A stretch of 64,000 nt of DNA from the sequence record PZ452594.1. One strand, given 5' to 3'. The position numbers were made by a program, and so were the translations under genes. Below the pieces are notes generated by a model. The model was not told where the DNA came from and searched no databases. It saw only the letters and a list, made by a program, of their open reading frames with translations. Shown one piece after another: positions 36,914 through 47,891 of the stretch (the first letter of the stretch is position 1; every line of letters begins with the position of its first letter). Source of the DNA: a phage.

Positions 36914-37387
36914 TTATTTGAACGATTTAACGTACTGAATAGAACCTTTACTATTTACGAAAGCGATTTTACCATTTTTATTATACATGGTAGCAGTACG
37001 CTGATAGCCATAAGTTTGTTTACCAGATTGATAACCAACTAATGCGAAATTATCTTCGCCCATTTTATTCTGTTTAGCGCGAATGCGTTCATGACCATGT
37101 GCCATAAGAACCTTAGCATCACCAGTTGCAATGGATCTACGAGTTTTTTCATCTTCAACTGTATTAACAAAGTCGTCAAATGAATCAAATTTAGCATGAG
37201 ATTTATTATACAGTTTTCCATCTACTGCATAATTATATCCCTGTACATCCATCTCAACTTCTGTACCATCATCCAATACAGCAGTGATTTTTTGACCTTT
37301 TTTAAATTTCAAAAGATCAGTAAAAGATTCAGCAATAATTTGAGAATTAATAGCTGCTTCAGTGATAAATTCTTGATATGTTTTCAT
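36914..37387 (-). CDS. internal-protein-like protein with N-terminal capsid-targeting sequence (157 aa)
   Basis: begins MKTYQEFITEA (T4 IP-type CTS ending in the prohead-protease E|A motif); ATG at 37385-37387 after AAAGGAAAC. Confidence 0.6.
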   Translation of the reverse strand: MKTYQEFITEAAINSQIIAESFTDLLKFKKGQKITAVLDDGTEVEMDVQGYNYAVDGKLYNKSHAKFDSFDDFVNTVEDEKTRRSIATGDAKVLMAHGHERIRAKQNKMGEDNFALVGYQSGKQTYGYQRTATMYNKNGKIAFVNSKGSIQYVKSFK

Positions 37388-42308: not shown

Positions 42309-42770
42309 TTATTTGATTTGTTTAGCAGACCAAATGCGGTCTTTGATGATTTTTTGGAGGTCTTCAACATACTCTAGGTCATGAGCATGTGGATTATCTT
42401 TGAAACTATGAGCTCGCGCAAGTTTCTGGCCTTCGGTCTTAATTATCAAAAGTTCTTTAAGAATTGCTTCATACCTAGAGATAATTCCTTTAGCAATATT
42501 TTTTTCTTGTGCTGCTTTAGGGTCAGCCTTAGGAGCAGGTTTACCAGAAGGTTTTTCGAAAGCCGCACCAGTAGCAACCAGGCTTTTCCAGGCGGTGGTA
42601 ACATAGTTACCCACAAAGCCTTCAGCTCTCATATCGTCATAGAACTTGTACCGAGATTCGTCAGAAGCATCTTTATAAGAATATTTACCAGCTTTAATAG
42701 CAGCAGTTGCTACAGCGCGAACATCTGAAGCGGATGCTTCGGTCATTAAAAATTGAGCATAAGTTTTCAT
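42309..42770 (-). CDS. protein with CTS-like N-terminus (153 aa)
   Basis: begins MKTYAQFLMTEA; ATG at 42768-42770 after AGGAAA; has its own terminator. Confidence 0.5.
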   Translation of the reverse strand: MKTYAQFLMTEASASDVRAVATAAIKAGKYSYKDASDESRYKFYDDMRAEGFVGNYVTTAWKSLVATGAAFEKPSGKPAPKADPKAAQEKNIAKGIISRYEAILKELLIIKTEGQKLARAHSFKDNPHAHDLEYVEDLQKIIKDRIWSAKQIK

Positions 42771-43153: not shown

Positions 43154-43228
43154 TGGTATCCCGCCCTGGGATCGAACCAGGACCGCAAACTTAGAAGGAT
43201 CGTATGCTATCCATTACACCAGCGGGAC
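43154..43228 (-). tRNA. tRNA-Arg (anticodon UCU), CCA encoded
   Basis: hand-folded GTCCCGC...CTTCTAA...GGTTCGATCC...GCGGGATACCA. Confidence 0.75.
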
Positions 43229-43233
43229 ATAAT

Positions 43234-43899
43234 TTAAAATTTCATTTTTCGACCTTTAAACCATCCTTCTGGAATTGGGTCAGTTTTCTTAATACGTTTA
43301 GAAACTTTTTCATCTAATGAATGAATCCACATCATACCAAATTGGGAATTCTTTTCACCTTTCTGGTGATTATTTTTAGCGTGAATTTCTTTCATTTTAT
43401 TAATAGTTTCAAGAGTATGATGCTTATTTAAAAATCTGCTATTATTTAAAAATTTTTCCTTGTATTCAGGAGTTGACCATAAACGTTTAAATACATTTGA
43501 ACCATTTTGACGATATTTTTCTTGAAGTAAAATATCATTTTTAAAACGTGACTTAAACGATTTAGCTCCTTTTAAACTAGCGTCTTTCTTCTGATTTAGC
43601 ATCTCAGGAATATTTATATGATCCCATCCGCCTTCACCGCCAAGTTTTAAATTATACACATCTGGTCTATTTAAAAACTCTTCTGTGACAATATTTTTCT
43701 CGGCTTCAAGCATAGATTCTTTATCATCAAAATATTCTAATATTTCTTTAGAAAAATTTTCTATACCATACCTGTCTTGGGCTCTTTTTAATAATTTACC
43801 AGAACCCATATATCCATCATCTAAATTTTCGGTAGAATGCACACCAATATAAATTTTATTATTAATTTTATTTGTTATTTTATAAAGATAAAAATGCAT
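43234..43899 (-). CDS. segB: GIY-YIG homing endonuclease (SegB-like, 221 aa) inside the tRNA cluster
   Basis: GIY-YIG motif FYLYKITNKINNKIYIGVHS; ATG at 43897-43899; the longer track ORF would overlap tRNA-Tyr. Confidence 0.65.
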   Translation of the reverse strand: MHFYLYKITNKINNKIYIGVHSTENLDDGYMGSGKLLKRAQDRYGIENFSKEILEYFDDKESMLEAEKNIVTEEFLNRPDVYNLKLGGEGGWDHINIPEMLNQKKDASLKGAKSFKSRFKNDILLQEKYRQNGSNVFKRLWSTPEYKEKFLNNSRFLNKHHTLETINKMKEIHAKNNHQKGEKNSQFGMMWIHSLDEKVSKRIKKTDPIPEGWFKGRKMKF

Positions 43900-43945
43900 A
43901 TCAGTCCTTAATAAAGAACTGAGCGTCTCACGACGAGTCATAAAT

Positions 43946-44032
43946 TGGTGGGGAGTGATGGAGTCGAACCACCCGAGTCGCAATGACAATGAATTTACAG
44001 TCCACACCGCTACCTCTACGGGATAACTCCCC
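43946..44032 (-). tRNA. tRNA-Tyr (anticodon GUA), long variable arm, CCA encoded
   Basis: hand-folded: acceptor GGGGAGT/ACTCCCC, anticodon loop CTGTAAA, T-loop TTCGACT. Confidence 0.6.
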
Positions 44033-44041
44033 TAATTAATT

Positions 44042-44118
44042 TGGTGACCCAGACCAGATTTGAACTGGTAACCTTTCCCTTATGAGGGGACTGCTGCTAA
44101 CCATTGAGCTACAGGGCC
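44042..44118 (-). tRNA. tRNA with CAU anticodon (Ile by T4 analogy, or Met), CCA encoded
   Basis: anticodon loop CTCATAA; T-arm ACCAG-TTCAAAT-CTGGT. Confidence 0.6.
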
Positions 44119-44119
44119 T

Positions 44120-44195
44120 TGGTGCTGATTGACGGAATCGAACCGCCGACCTTCTCATTACAAGTGAGTTGCTCTACCTACTGAGCTAAATCAGC
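44120..44195 (-). tRNA. tRNA-Thr (UGU), CCA encoded
   Basis: anticodon loop CTTGTAA; acceptor GCTGATT/AATCAGC. Confidence 0.75.
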
Positions 44196-44197
44196 AA

Positions 44198-44284
44198 CGG
44201 AGGCGATAGGATTCGAACCTATGAATCGCCGGAGCGACTGCCGGTTTTCAAGACCGGTGCATTAAACCACTCTGCCACGCCTCC
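44198..44284 (-). tRNA. tRNA-Ser (UGA), long variable arm, CCA not encoded
   Basis: anticodon arm CCGGT-CTTGAAA-ACCGG; acceptor GGAGGCG/CGCCTCC. Confidence 0.75.
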
Positions 44285-44286
44285 AG

Positions 44287-44360
44287 TCTCCATACAAGGA
44301 TTTGAACCTTGGACCTCCTGATCCCAAATCAGGCGCTCTACCAAACTGAGCTACACGGAG
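44287..44360 (-). tRNA. tRNA-Pro (UGG), CCA not encoded
   Basis: anticodon arm CCTGA-TTTGGGA-TCAGG; T-arm CAAGG-TTCAAAT-CCTTG. Confidence 0.7.
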
Positions 44361-44370
44361 TAAATTAAAT

Positions 44371-44444
<74 letters not shown>

Positions 44445-44449
44445 AAATT

Positions 44450-44536
44450 TGGTGCGAGAAGTGGGACTCGAACCCACAAGGAAATCATTCCGCAGCATTT
44501 TAAGTGCTGTGCCTTTACCAATTTGACCATTCTCGC
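44450..44536 (-). tRNA. tRNA-Leu (UAA), long variable arm, CCA encoded
   Basis: anticodon arm CAGCA-CTTAAAA-TGCTG; acceptor GCGAGAA/TTCTCGC. Confidence 0.75.
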
Positions 44537-44537
44537 G

Positions 44538-44610
44538 CTGGGAATAAAGGACTCGAACCTTTGCATCCTGGAATCAAAATCCAGTGCCTTACCAACTTGG
44601 CTAATTCCCA
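44538..44610 (-). tRNA. tRNA-Gln (UUG), CCA not encoded
   Basis: anticodon arm CTGGA-TTTTGAT-TCCAG; T-arm AAAGG-TTCGAGT-CCTTT. Confidence 0.75.
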
Positions 44611-44707: not shown

Positions 44708-45001
44708 TTACCATTTATGATGATACATACTTACGATGCATTCAAGACCCAAAGAATTCTTGAAAATATCATATTCAAGAGGACCTTTTTCTGTTTCGAT
44801 AAAGAAATCAAAATTTACTGTATTAAATTTACGGTCTTCCTTTACTAATTTAACTTGAGAAGATGAACGGTCAATGTAAACCTTTTCAACTTCAAAACAT
44901 GTTAAAATGCCATAATCATCGATCAAGGCTTTAGCTGCTTCTTGATCATATTTATATCCATTTTCAATGGATGATACTTTTGCATAAAGAATCATTATCA
45001 C
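44708..45001 (-). CDS. hypothetical protein (97 aa)
   Basis: ORF track. Confidence 0.45.
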   Translation of the reverse strand: MIMILYAKVSSIENGYKYDQEAAKALIDDYGILTCFEVEKVYIDRSSSQVKLVKEDRKFNTVNFDFFIETEKGPLEYDIFKNSLGLECIVSMYHHKW

Positions 45002-45378
45002 ACTCCGTAGTCTATCTTGACCAATCTACCTTTGTAGTAGCCAAAGTTCTTTGGAAAGGCATCATACTCAAAGAAATCACGGTCAAGCGTTCTACATTCA
45101 TCACCATCAACATCATTATAGAGCTTTTGCAAATCAGATTTAAAAAGCTCCTTATCCTCAACTGGCTCTGCTTTGTGCATCACAACCATGAGACCAAATC
45201 TGTTTGAGTATGCTATTGGGCATAGGTGCTTGTTATCATACCCCTTCCACTGACCTTCTGTAAGATTGCTGAGCATACCCTGCACGAAGTGTTTCCATGT
45301 CTTGGGGATAGGGAACTTAATAGCATACTTACGTGTTAGTAGTACCCATCTGGTTCCACCCGATTTAATTAATTTCAT
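44998..45378 (-). CDS. hypothetical protein (126 aa)
   Basis: ORF track. Confidence 0.45.
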   Translation of the reverse strand: MKLIKSGGTRWVLLTRKYAIKFPIPKTWKHFVQGMLSNLTEGQWKGYDNKHLCPIAYSNRFGLMVVMHKAEPVEDKELFKSDLQKLYNDVDGDECRTLDRDFFEYDAFPKNFGYYKGRLVKIDYGV

Positions 45379-45452
45379 AGTCTCAGCTACCTCAATATTA
45401 ATTTAAGCAATATCATTCCTATAAGGTAATACTTTAGCATAAAGAATCATTG

Positions 45453-45863
45453 TCAGCCTCTATCAACGATAGCATGAGTATGGGCATTTACGATTTGCCA
45501 CCAGTCGAAACGATTGGAACCATAATCTGGTTTATTTTCATTTTCTTTAATGATATCACGCAACTTATCTTCTGTTTCAGCATACGCAATTAAATCATCA
45601 TATCCACCGCAAGGATAATAATTATCACCTGCGAATAAAAGAAAATTTACCTTAGATGGATTTACGTAATAATGGTCTTTAGGATATTTAGTTCCTCTCC
45701 AATCAGTTACTTCAACATAACGGTAAGAAAATCCATTTTTACTTTCAATCCAACTCCACGCTTCAAAAGGAGTATTAAAAACTTTATCAGGTATTAAATT
45801 ACCTTCAAAATGAGAAGGATTTGCATAATCCCCGGCATAAACATAATATTCGTTAATACTCAT
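45453..45863 (-). CDS. hypothetical protein (136 aa)
   Basis: ORF track. Confidence 0.45.
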   Translation of the reverse strand: MSINEYYVYAGDYANPSHFEGNLIPDKVFNTPFEAWSWIESKNGFSYRYVEVTDWRGTKYPKDHYYVNPSKVNFLLFAGDNYYPCGGYDDLIAYAETEDKLRDIIKENENKPDYGSNRFDWWQIVNAHTHAIVDRG

Positions 45864-46049
45864 TTATTCACCTTTAGAAATTTTATCCATAACGATAGCG
45901 ATTAAACCAATTAAAAATGCTACTACAAGCGAAAACACATTTTCTGCTGTAGTTAATAATCCGCATATAAATCCAACAAACATTGAAAAACTAAAAGCGG
46001 AAGCAGAAATTGCAATAGCAACATTTCGAATTAATTCACAACGTTTCAT
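45864..46049 (-). CDS. small membrane protein (61 aa)
   Basis: hydrophobic throughout; early promoter upstream. Confidence 0.45.
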   Translation of the reverse strand: MKRCELIRNVAIAISASAFSFSMFVGFICGLLTTAENVFSLVVAFLIGLIAIVMDKISKGE

Positions 46050-46066
46050 TTTATTCTCCTCGGTAG

Positions 46067-46090
46067 TTGATAGGGTAATAGTATCACTAC
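46067..46090. repeat. 24-nt promoter-core repeat, copy 1
   Basis: identical to 46367-46390, exactly 300 nt away. Confidence 0.85.
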
Positions 46091-46112
46091 CCTATCTAAA
46101 AGTAAACTTATT
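46076..46112 (-). promoter_or_regulatory. early promoter (GTTTAC, 18 nt, TACTAT) with 24-mer ttgatagggtaatagtatcactac
   Basis: sense GTTTACTTTTAGATAGGGTAGTGATACTAT; 24-mer at 46067-46090. Confidence 0.5.
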
Positions 46113-46341
46113 TTTTACGAAAAATTGATTTATATTTATCAGCCCATTTCTCAATGACTTTTGCCGGGCCATAGATAACAAAGTAATCGCCAAACTCTTC
46201 ACCACCGAGTTGACCGAAATCATCTAATGCATCACGAAGAACTCCATGAGGCATTTCACCCATTTTATCTTTCTTGCCAGTGTAAATAAACTCAACTTTT
46301 ACATCAGCAGTTTCAGCAATAAATTCTTGATACGTTTTCAT
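46108..46341 (-). CDS. internal-protein-like protein with N-terminal CTS (77 aa); ipI-locus variant
   Basis: ATG at 46339-46341 after GGAGAA gives MKTYQEFIAETADVKVEF...; track start 46359 is GTG. Confidence 0.6.
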   Translation of the reverse strand: MKTYQEFIAETADVKVEFIYTGKKDKMGEMPHGVLRDALDDFGQLGGEEFGDYFVIYGPAKVIEKWADKYKSIFRKK

Positions 46342-46366
46342 TTTGTTCTCCAATTTCACATTTGTT

Positions 46367-46390
46367 TTGATAGGGTAATAGTATCACTAC
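46367..46390. repeat. 24-nt promoter-core repeat, copy 2
   Basis: identical to 46067-46090. Confidence 0.85.
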
Positions 46391-46411
46391 TAAAACCCCA
46401 TGTAAACAACT
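46376..46411 (-). promoter_or_regulatory. early promoter (GTTTAC, 18 nt, TACTAT) for the ipI-like gene
   Basis: sense GTTTACATGGGGTTTTAGTAGTGATACTAT. Confidence 0.5.
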
Positions 46412-46419
46412 TTGTGAAA

Positions 46420-47116
<697 letters not shown>

Positions 47117-47117
<1 letters not shown>

Positions 47118-47842
47118 TATAGTACCTTTAGTGTATTTTTAATTTTAGAAAAAAGTTCTTCAAGAGAACCATCGTTTGTAATTACTAAATCGCCATCACG
47201 AATTGGCAATCCAGCTTCTGTAATATGTGTATCATTGGATTTTTGACCAGGACGAACTACATGAATTACTGTAGCACCCATCGCCCTAGCCGCATCCATT
47301 TCATGATCTTGACGAGTATCAGGAACGATATAATAATCATAACCTGAGTTAAATTTATCAAGATAATCTAAAGCAAATAATTTTACCCAGTACATGCGGT
47401 CGAAGTTATTAACAATCAAATCCGTACCTAGGGCTTGCATCAGACGACGGACTGACCATTGATCTTCAATATTATTTATAACGTCAATAATCTTGTTAAA
47501 TGCTACGGAATTAACTGATTCTTGTCCTTCGTCATCAAAAACAAACACACCCTTAATTGGGCTTTTACCGTTAAGATAGCAAAATGCTTGTTCCATAATC
47601 GTGATTACTTCTGATTTAGTCAGATTTAAATTAGTCTCACGATCATAGTCAATTCCTTCAAACTCTTTACGAGTTAAGCAAGGATAGTCAGTGTTTTCTG
47701 CAAATACGCCCCATGCATAAGCCAATGCATCCTTAATAGGACCAGCAAGTTGGTATTTAACTGCAGAATAATTGCTCATGATAAAATCAGCAGTAGTATC
47801 TTTTCCACTACGCTTTACACCGCTTAAAAAGATTAGTTTCAT
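47117..47842 (-). CDS. 1: deoxynucleoside monophosphate kinase gp1 (241 aa)
   Basis: ATG at 47840-47842 after GAGGAG gives MKLIFLSGVKRSGKDT (P-loop). Confidence 0.9.
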
Positions 47843-47891
47843 GTGTTTCTCCTCAAATTTAATTAAGATTATAACACACAAAACTGAAGCA

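Follow-up and report, generated by a model that had tools for sequence, protein, structure and literature searches.

The window, as we call the whole 64,000-nucleotide (64-kb) stretch of DNA analysed here, derives from a T4-like phage (Tequatrovirus) and contains the IP1 locus, which lies between gene 57B and trna.4 and in this case holds one internal-protein (IP) gene, ip6. The genes of the region run on the minus strand throughout, in the following order:

47117-47881, minus strand: gene 1 (a listed ORF)
46875-47117, minus strand: 57A
46420-46875, minus strand: 57B, encoding the Acb1 anti-CBASS phosphodiesterase (Pfam PF23474, E=2.6e-60); conserved left anchor of the IP locus
46108-46341, minus strand: ip6 (IpVI), the 77-aa ORF, encoding an internal virion protein precursor; its capsid-targeting sequence (CTS) MKTYQEFIAE is encoded at 46312-46341 and its Shine-Dalgarno sequence GGAG lies at 46348-46351
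45864-46049, minus strand: trna.4, encoding a predicted 61-aa membrane protein (phrog_1692); conserved right anchor of the IP locus
45453-45863, minus strand: trna.3
43154-44610, minus strand: tRNA cluster

Both anchors are annotated in other T-even phages, gp57B in PST, T4, and RB18 and trna.4 in T4, PST, and RB18. The original prediction placed the 77-aa ORF at the position of T4 ipI, upstream of 57B; the position between 57B and trna.4 agrees with this, but in the direction of transcription the ORF lies downstream of 57B (57B > ip6 > trna.4). The 57B product is labelled an RNA ligase in RefSeq records and PHROGs, whereas Pfam assigns it to Acb1, an anti-CBASS 2H phosphodiesterase. Since the upstream neighbour of ip6 is an anti-CBASS enzyme, the gene sits in an anti-defence neighbourhood. 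The single-gene state of the locus, with ip6 only, is also found in RB18, JK1, KIT03, and slur07. The 371-nt cassette occurs at 100% identity in at least 16 GenBank records (RefSeq/GenBank duplicates counted) and at least 80% of it is covered in 231, so that Ip6, with more than 230 such records, is widespread.

Judged by its sequence, the ORF is the already named internal protein Ip6 of T6, PST, RB18, and JK1. It matches phrog_8111 ("internal virion protein") over 77 of 77 positions (E=3.9e-51), it is annotated as Ip6 or IpVI in JK1, PST, RB18, and VR25, and in RB18, where the locus DNA is 100% identical to that of the window, the ORF is described as "similar to T6 Ip6". Protein clusters homologous to Ip6 show 71-94% identity. 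As had been predicted, the ORF lies between two repeats and opens with the CTS MKTYQEFIAE, which is identical to that of T4 IPII/IPIII. The first ten residues of IPIII are an experimentally defined capsid-targeting sequence, and Tyr4 and Phe7 (targeting) as well as Ile8 and Glu10 (processing) of Ip6 match the positions mapped in IPIII (PMC9026906). Ip6 thus has both the N-terminal CTS of about ten residues and the location in one of two polymorphic IP loci by which T-even IPs are recognised. T-even IPs are also described as small basic proteins; the predicted mature Ip6 is small (67 aa) but near-neutral (pI 6.5, with 12 K+R and 12 D+E, against pI 9.0 for IPI*), basicity being a description of the T4 IPs rather than a strict criterion.

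The expectation that the mature part would be unlike T4 IPI is borne out, as BLASTP against IPI aligns residues 1-16 only. On this alignment, and with no IPI* fold among the structural matches listed, Ip6 does not qualify as a homologue of IPI, the inhibitor of GmrSD-CT596. An AlphaFold (AF2) model of Ip6 (pLDDT 84) forms a small alpha/beta domain, for which Foldseek against the PDB gave a best E of 0.08 to generic ferredoxin-like alpha/beta sandwiches; no match reached E<=0.001, and the 50 matches listed include no IPI* entry. A sequence search of PDB chains with Ip6 returned chance matches only (Dyp peroxidases, E>=0.07), a BFVD structure search with the model returned only Ip6 relatives of 68-78 aa, Pfam has no family for Ip6, and a literature search retrieved no paper naming Ip6 alongside "internal protein" and "T-even". 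T4 Ip1, Ip2, and Ip3 are injected, and each inhibits one specific GmrSD type IV restriction enzyme (PMC12373910). An anti-restriction role for Ip6 would be purely analogous to theirs, the predicted fold giving no functional clue.

The repeats that bracket the gene are, as originally claimed, two perfect copies of TTGATAGGGTAATAGTATCACTAC (plus strand) exactly 300 nt apart. There are exactly two copies in the 64-kb window, and a search of the whole window at up to three mismatches found no others. By chance none would be expected (0 in 100 dinucleotide shuffles). The 24 nt constitute the maximal perfect repeat, with different bases at both edges. The elements on either side of ip6 are:

46400-46431, minus strand: "-35 block" GATTTAAAATAATTTCACAAAGTTGTTTACAT, comprising the last 57B codons, an AT-rich upstream region, and the -35
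46378-46406, minus strand: putative early promoter of ip6, with -35 TTTACA (46406-46401), 17-nt spacer, and TG-extended -10 TACTAT (46383-46378)
46367-46390, minus strand: upstream 24-nt copy (coding strand GTAGTGATACTATTACCCTATCAA), extended -10 and start region
46362-46409, minus strand: longer, nested hairpin of the ip6 promoter, with outer stem TTGTTT/AAACAA and inner stems GGGGT/ACCC(T) and TAGTA/TACTA
46078-46106, minus strand: putative early promoter of trna.4, with -35 TTTACT (46106-46101), 17-nt spacer, and TG-extended -10 TACTAT (46083-46078)
46069-46096, minus strand: hairpin of the trna.4 promoter, GATAGGGTA-N10-TACCCTATC, a 9-bp stem that encloses the -10
46067-46090, minus strand: downstream 24-nt copy

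Read on the coding strand, either copy is GTAG-TGaTACTAT-TACCCTATCAA, an extended -10 followed by a start region. The claim that each repeat holds the -10 and start of an early promoter is well matched, with TTTACA or TTTACT found 17 nt before the -10 and the T4 homologues annotated as PE2 and PE1. Both promoters fit the PST/T4 early-promoter consensus TTTACW-N17-TAYWAT (Comeau 2014, PMC4122927). The ip6 promoter, with a transcription start predicted near 46371, reaches 9/12 with TG in a consensus scan and shares its upstream half, spacer, and core with T4 PE1 (-35 TTTACAT, -10 TACTATT; X03016). The trna.4 promoter, whose -35 directly follows the ip6 stop codon and whose start is predicted near 46071, scores 8/12 against the sigma-70 consensus, which is under the listing threshold of the scan, and sits at the position of T4 PE1 in X03016. 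No Rfam family matches within 45700-46600. Two 98-aa Ip6 variants (P0006 and P0007) have lost the stop codon and gained 21 extra codons, and their tails, ISLLLDRVVILLPYLLLRRIK and INLLLDGVVILLPYQLLRRIK, apparently read across the downstream trna.4 promoter.

Two strong T4 early promoters might resemble each other simply because both are constrained in the extended -10, the start-site motif CTATCAA, and the hairpin, with no part played by the repeats in gene shuffling. When 18 other promoter-like sites of the window are aligned on their -10, they match the 24-mer at up to 16 of 24 positions, including TG-TAnnAT and CTATCAA. It follows that about two thirds of the 24-mer identity is general promoter consensus (TG-TAnnAT ... 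CTATCAA); the remainder is specific to this pair. The promoter pairs of T6 and PST share only 14-15 nt exactly, which likewise favours constraint and indicates that perfect identity over 24 nt is a lineage-specific state. Constraint as the whole explanation is nevertheless unlikely in our judgement, given the comparative evidence below. An exact search of IMG/VR for the 24-mer found it in two contigs only, so that exact-pattern scanning is a poor way of surveying the element. Repetition at this locus also extends beyond the 24-mer: 31-32 nt of the -35 block recur after ipV in T6, PST, and QOTSP and 21-22 nt recur after ipI, and the last codons of 57B contained in this block are also the last codons of ipV.

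Each 24-nt copy constitutes the loop and right arm of an inverted repeat around the -10. The ip6-promoter hairpin folds as DNA at -9.2 kcal/mol (z=-3.2), with z=-4.3 for the RNA fold of its core, and the trna.4-promoter hairpin gives z=-2.4 as DNA and z=-4.2 as RNA. The latter is placed at the 3' end of the ip6 cistron, and its T4 counterpart is labelled "pot. stem-loop structure pot. IpI terminator" (X03016). Neither hairpin is followed by a T-run, and an intrinsic terminator scan found no site here. Among IP-locus promoters, -10-enclosing hairpins reach z<-2 in 33 of 45 distinct sequences (median z -3.6; significance was taken as per-sequence z-scores, the stem registers differing between promoter types), and they are strongly non-random. 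Although the arms vary by promoter type they stay complementary, as in GATAGGGTA/TACCCTATC versus TGATGAGGTA/TACCTCATCA; between trna.4-type and ipI-type hairpins two base pairs are swapped, one from A-T to G-C and one from G-C to A-T. Such compensated changes suggest selection for the hairpin structure, and the same design is present in the second IP locus of T4. Early-type promoters outside the IP locus, at about 41780, 41322, and 29551 (minus strand), also have strong -10-enclosing hairpins (z=-5.5, -2.6, and -5.9), so that IP genes are not alone in having this design. Candidate roles for the hairpins are stabilisation of the 3' end or attenuation of the upstream transcript, or the formation of a recombination-prone DNA structure.

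The last of these roles can be taken further, to hairpins that are themselves structure-specific recombination sites, acted on by a dedicated or structure-selective enzyme, such as T4 endonuclease VII on extruded cruciforms or an integron-like system, with the cassettes moving as excised mini-circles. Their non-random occurrence (33/45 at z<-2) and the maintained complementarity of differing arms speak for such a role, and mini-circles of promoter/stem-loop elements (PeSLs) were shown experimentally in RB49/phi1 (PMC2839356). Against it, crossovers are not tied to a single point but fall in at least three blocks (-35 block, core, and leader/CTS), no recombinase gene lies within or adjoining the locus, chimeric promoters with mismatched arms persist (L028, PST), and similar hairpins occur at some non-IP promoters of the window. 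We regard this possibility as very unlikely. With crossovers spread over several blocks and no recombinase gene in the vicinity, the simpler mechanism is general homologous recombination.

To compare the locus across phages, the 57B-trna.4 interval was gathered from 36 IMG/VR contigs and eight GenBank phages. Of 41 loci, 38 could be parsed, and in these the interval holds between zero and five CTS-bearing genes, belonging to at least 15 unrelated sequence families. The spacers of Tequatrovirus are modular: the left half is either TTTCACAAAGTTGTTTACAT with a spacer that exists in two variants, or GTTTACTTTTAGATAGGGTAG; next comes the common core, GTGATACTATTAYC; and three right halves or leaders exist, of ipI/ipV, ip6, and trna.4 type. 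These halves and the core are found in many combinations.

The clearest case of gene loss or gain involves T4. R5505, teqdroes, and KMB40 have the order ipI-ip6-trna.4, while T4 has ipI-trna.4, and the T4 spacer between ipI and trna.4 combines two spacers of these phages, beginning as the left part of ipI>ip6 and continuing as the right part of ip6>trna.4. In the alignment, the only possible switch point lies inside GTGATACTATTACCCTATCAA, which comprises 21 of the repeat's 24 bases. Deleting in silico the 300 nt between the window's repeats yields ATTTCACAAAGTTGTTTACATGGGGTTTTAGTAGTGATACTATTACCCTATCAACTACCGAGG, a junction that matches that of T4 at 78 of 83 positions. PE1 of T4 is thus a hybrid of the window's two promoters, as expected from excision of ip6. 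Further products of exchange are seen elsewhere. In KMB40 a trna.4 leader precedes ip6, extending the flanking repeat to 44 nt, and in teqdroes an ip6 leader precedes trna.4, extending it to 55 nt. The promoter of L028 is a mismatched chimera of an ip6-type left half and an ipI-type right half. In L021 (IMGVR_UViG_2706796299) the spacer between a 90-aa and a 102-aa IP gene contains a tandem duplication of GATACTATTACCTCATCAA in the promoter core, which looks like the product of a slipped or unequal crossover. An exact direct repeat of 14-55 nt, located in the promoter, flanks each of the 14 ip6 cassettes examined. The alignment with other T-even genomes that the original prediction called for comes out in its favour, with a hybrid T4 spacer whose crossover is in the core, together with promoter chimeras and a core duplication in other phages.

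Comparison with a second genus extends this picture. In Gaprivervirus (VR7/VR20/VR25) the flanking repeat is GTATAATTATCCCATCAACTA, which differs from that of Tequatrovirus but is common to both promoters of each genome. A repeat that differs between genera and matches within a genome is the pattern expected from exchange between copies. Promoter constraint alone does not account for copies that are more alike within a genome than orthologous copies are between genera, nor for a T4 spacer that switches parentage exactly in the core, nor for promoter halves in many combinations and a tandemly duplicated core. The ip6 gene of the window is 85% identical in nucleotides to that of Gaprivervirus, compared with 75% for the flanks 57B and trna.4, and 85-87% identical to that of T6/PST, compared with 97-98% for the flanks. 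The history of ip6 differs from that of its flanks, and the identities provide evidence for movement of ip6 between Tequatrovirus and Gaprivervirus.

These identities also bear on whether the repeats are left over from a promoter-plus-IP unit that was duplicated in tandem long ago, and are alike through common descent and not through ongoing exchange. Serial duplication would give units that share the layout of promoter, Shine-Dalgarno, ATG-CTS, and ORF, and all units do share it. The mature parts of neighbouring IPs, however, have no detectable similarity, while their promoters are nearly identical, so that homogenisation or exchange is required in any case, and ip6 is closer between the genera than its flanks are. 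We give a duplication origin hardly any credence.

Several observations limit how far the 24-mer can be regarded as the boundary of a cassette. First, the breakpoints of ipI and ipV indels relative to the window are located not in the 24-mer but in the 32-nt block GATTTAAAATAATTTCACAAAGTTGTTTACAT beside it. Second, flanking identity is limited to 9-13 nt in some cassettes (C102/C103 and I77), and in many genera IP genes follow one another from stop to start without a promoter between them, the sole repeated element being the Shine-Dalgarno-ATG-CTS coding block. Three conserved blocks of the locus thus appear to serve as crossover sites, the 24-mer being one of them. Finally, all divergence between ip6 of the window and the T6/PST allele falls in 46125-46224 (minus strand), in the C-terminal half of the ORF (GGEEFGDYFVIYGPAK.. 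versus AAEDYGDKIVVTGPAA..); the inner edge of the divergent block is mid-ORF, and its other end, about 15 nt ahead of the stop codon, does not reach the repeat. In QOTSP, ip6 is a chimera of the window and T6-type alleles. The mid-ORF edge and the QOTSP chimera indicate that plain intragenic recombination also operates. Of the promoter-bounded cassette that had been proposed, the whole-gene gain and loss of ip6 at the repeats is retained; the ipI and ipV indels, with their breaks in the -35 block, and the intragenic ip6 allele boundary do not follow it. The evidence for exchange is all comparative, and whether each event was a deletion or an insertion cannot be read from it.

We consider it highly probable that ip6 is a promoter-plus-IP unit that is gained and lost by homologous recombination between repeated blocks. 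The locus would consist of such blocks (the -35 block, the -10/start core, and the Shine-Dalgarno-ATG-CTS coding block), and ordinary homologous recombination between block copies, within one genome or between co-infecting phages, would add, remove, or swap whole units, rebuilding a working promoter each time. Recombination between the two 24-mers would lead specifically to loss or gain of ip6, and the -35 block would be where the ipI and ipV indels cross over. Homology of less than 50 bp is reportedly enough for recombination in T4 (cited in PMC2839356). In the resulting arrangement ip6 and trna.4 would each be under their own T4-type early promoter with an identical, hairpin-embedded 24-nt core. 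By analogy with T4 Ip1, Ip2, and Ip3, Ip6 would be made as a 77-aa precursor and directed by MKTYQEFIAE into the prohead core, the prohead protease would remove the leader after Glu10, and the 67-aa mature protein would be injected with the DNA, where it would most probably block a host nuclease. A bolder conjecture takes the hairpins as recombination sites (by cruciform or single-strand fold) and the IP locus as an integrase-free, integron-like array, from which ip6 would travel between phage genera as a circle of about 300 bp that carries its promoter, and separately proposes that Ip6 could inhibit a defence system that is not GmrSD; we think it improbable that this holds.

Other cassette-like and CTS-bearing genes occur in the window. 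A 126-aa ORF (44998-45378, minus strand; phrog_4301, unknown function) lies between trna.3 and trna.2 and is missing from T4, T6, PST, and JK1. A direct repeat made of about 21 nt from the trna.2 start, ATGATTCTTTATGC[T/A]AAAGTA, brackets the ORF (44975-45450), which looks like another cassette-type insertion, in which the duplicated junction is a coding 5' end, not a promoter. A 157-aa ORF (36914-37387, minus strand) with the CTS MKTYQEFITEA lies in the second IP locus, adjoining gene e, and by position and length is probably the "internal virion protein, RB32ORF122c" of RB18, whose second IP locus has RB32ORF122c as a single gene where T4 has denV-ipII-ipIII. A 153-aa ORF (42309-42770, minus strand) with the CTS-like start MKTYAQFLMTEA belongs to neither of the two classical IP loci, being located between the e.x genes and tRNA-Arg. 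Ahead of it are a GC-rich terminator hairpin and the late-promoter-like TATAAATA, and another terminator hairpin follows it. By position it is probably "RB32ORF132c" of RB18, and its product may be expressed late and packaged.

The host range of T4-like phages, therapeutic ones included, is set by internal proteins, which are injected as anti-defence weapons, and the organisation of these proteins in promoter-bounded, exchangeable units would explain how rapidly these phages re-arm. The 24-nt repeats offer natural handles for deleting or swapping ip6.

The gene, its promoters, and the mechanism are all already described, and the window is a clean example of a mechanism first proposed in 1994. 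The abstract of Repoila, Tetart, Bouet, and Krisch from that year reportedly describes a leader and flanking blocks with transcription and translation signals, all of them conserved, and the same paper reportedly named Ip6 itself. The T-even IP loci of Repoila 1994 (EMBO J 13:4181) resemble the window in extending from 57B to trna.4 and in holding a small ORF with a conserved N-terminal leader and flanking signal blocks, and there is no essential difference between the two. Later papers credit Repoila 1994 with finding PeSL-like sequences at the two IP loci, both highly variable, and with the hypothesis of a specific mechanism of shuffling (PMC2839356; PMC4122927), and at least ten Ips are attributed to that work in PMC12373910. 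Arbiol 2010 (PMC2839356) and Comeau 2014 (PMC4122927) proposed promoter/stem-loop-mediated IP shuffling and credited Repoila 1994; Comeau et al. listed the IP differences between PST (ipV+ipVI) and T4.

The T4 record X03016 of 1985 already shows putative early promoters PE2 and PE1 flanking ipI, each overlapping a "potential stem-loop"; the promoter annotation is present only in this older record and absent from the complete T4 records NC_000866 and AF158101. T4 ipI is thus like ip6 of the window in lying at the same position between two early promoters with potential stem-loops, and PE1 shares the core GTGATACTATTACCCTATCAA with the window's repeats. The two loci differ in the gene between the promoters, ipI and not ip6, the mature proteins being unrelated. 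Similarly, T4 IPI*, Ip2, and Ip3 are small CTS-bearing proteins of IP loci, as is Ip6, for which the same delivery (packaged, cleaved, and injected) would be expected by analogy, whereas the mature part of Ip6 has no sequence or fold similarity to theirs and is near-neutral, not basic.

The PeSLs of RB49/phi1, PST/T4, and nt-1/KVP40 combine an early promoter, a stem-loop, a Shine-Dalgarno sequence, and a start codon beside small accessory ORFs, and in the hyperplastic regions the ends of indels or replacements fall in the motif. The window has the corresponding promoter, TTTACA/TTTACT-N17-TGaTACTAT followed by GGAG and ATG, and indel boundaries fall within the motif in the hybrid spacer of T4, in the chimeras, and in the duplicated core. 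The stem-loop differs: in PeSLs it precedes the promoter and is of terminator type, whereas that of the window encloses the -10, is AT-rich, and is without a GGGG...CCCC stem or U-tract. Arbiol et al. accordingly described the T-even IP elements as analogues, not homologues, of PeSLs (PMC2839356). To these earlier descriptions the present comparison adds T4 PE1 as the hybrid to be expected from ip6 excision, the leader swaps, the core duplication, and the evidence for movement of ip6 between Tequatrovirus and Gaprivervirus.
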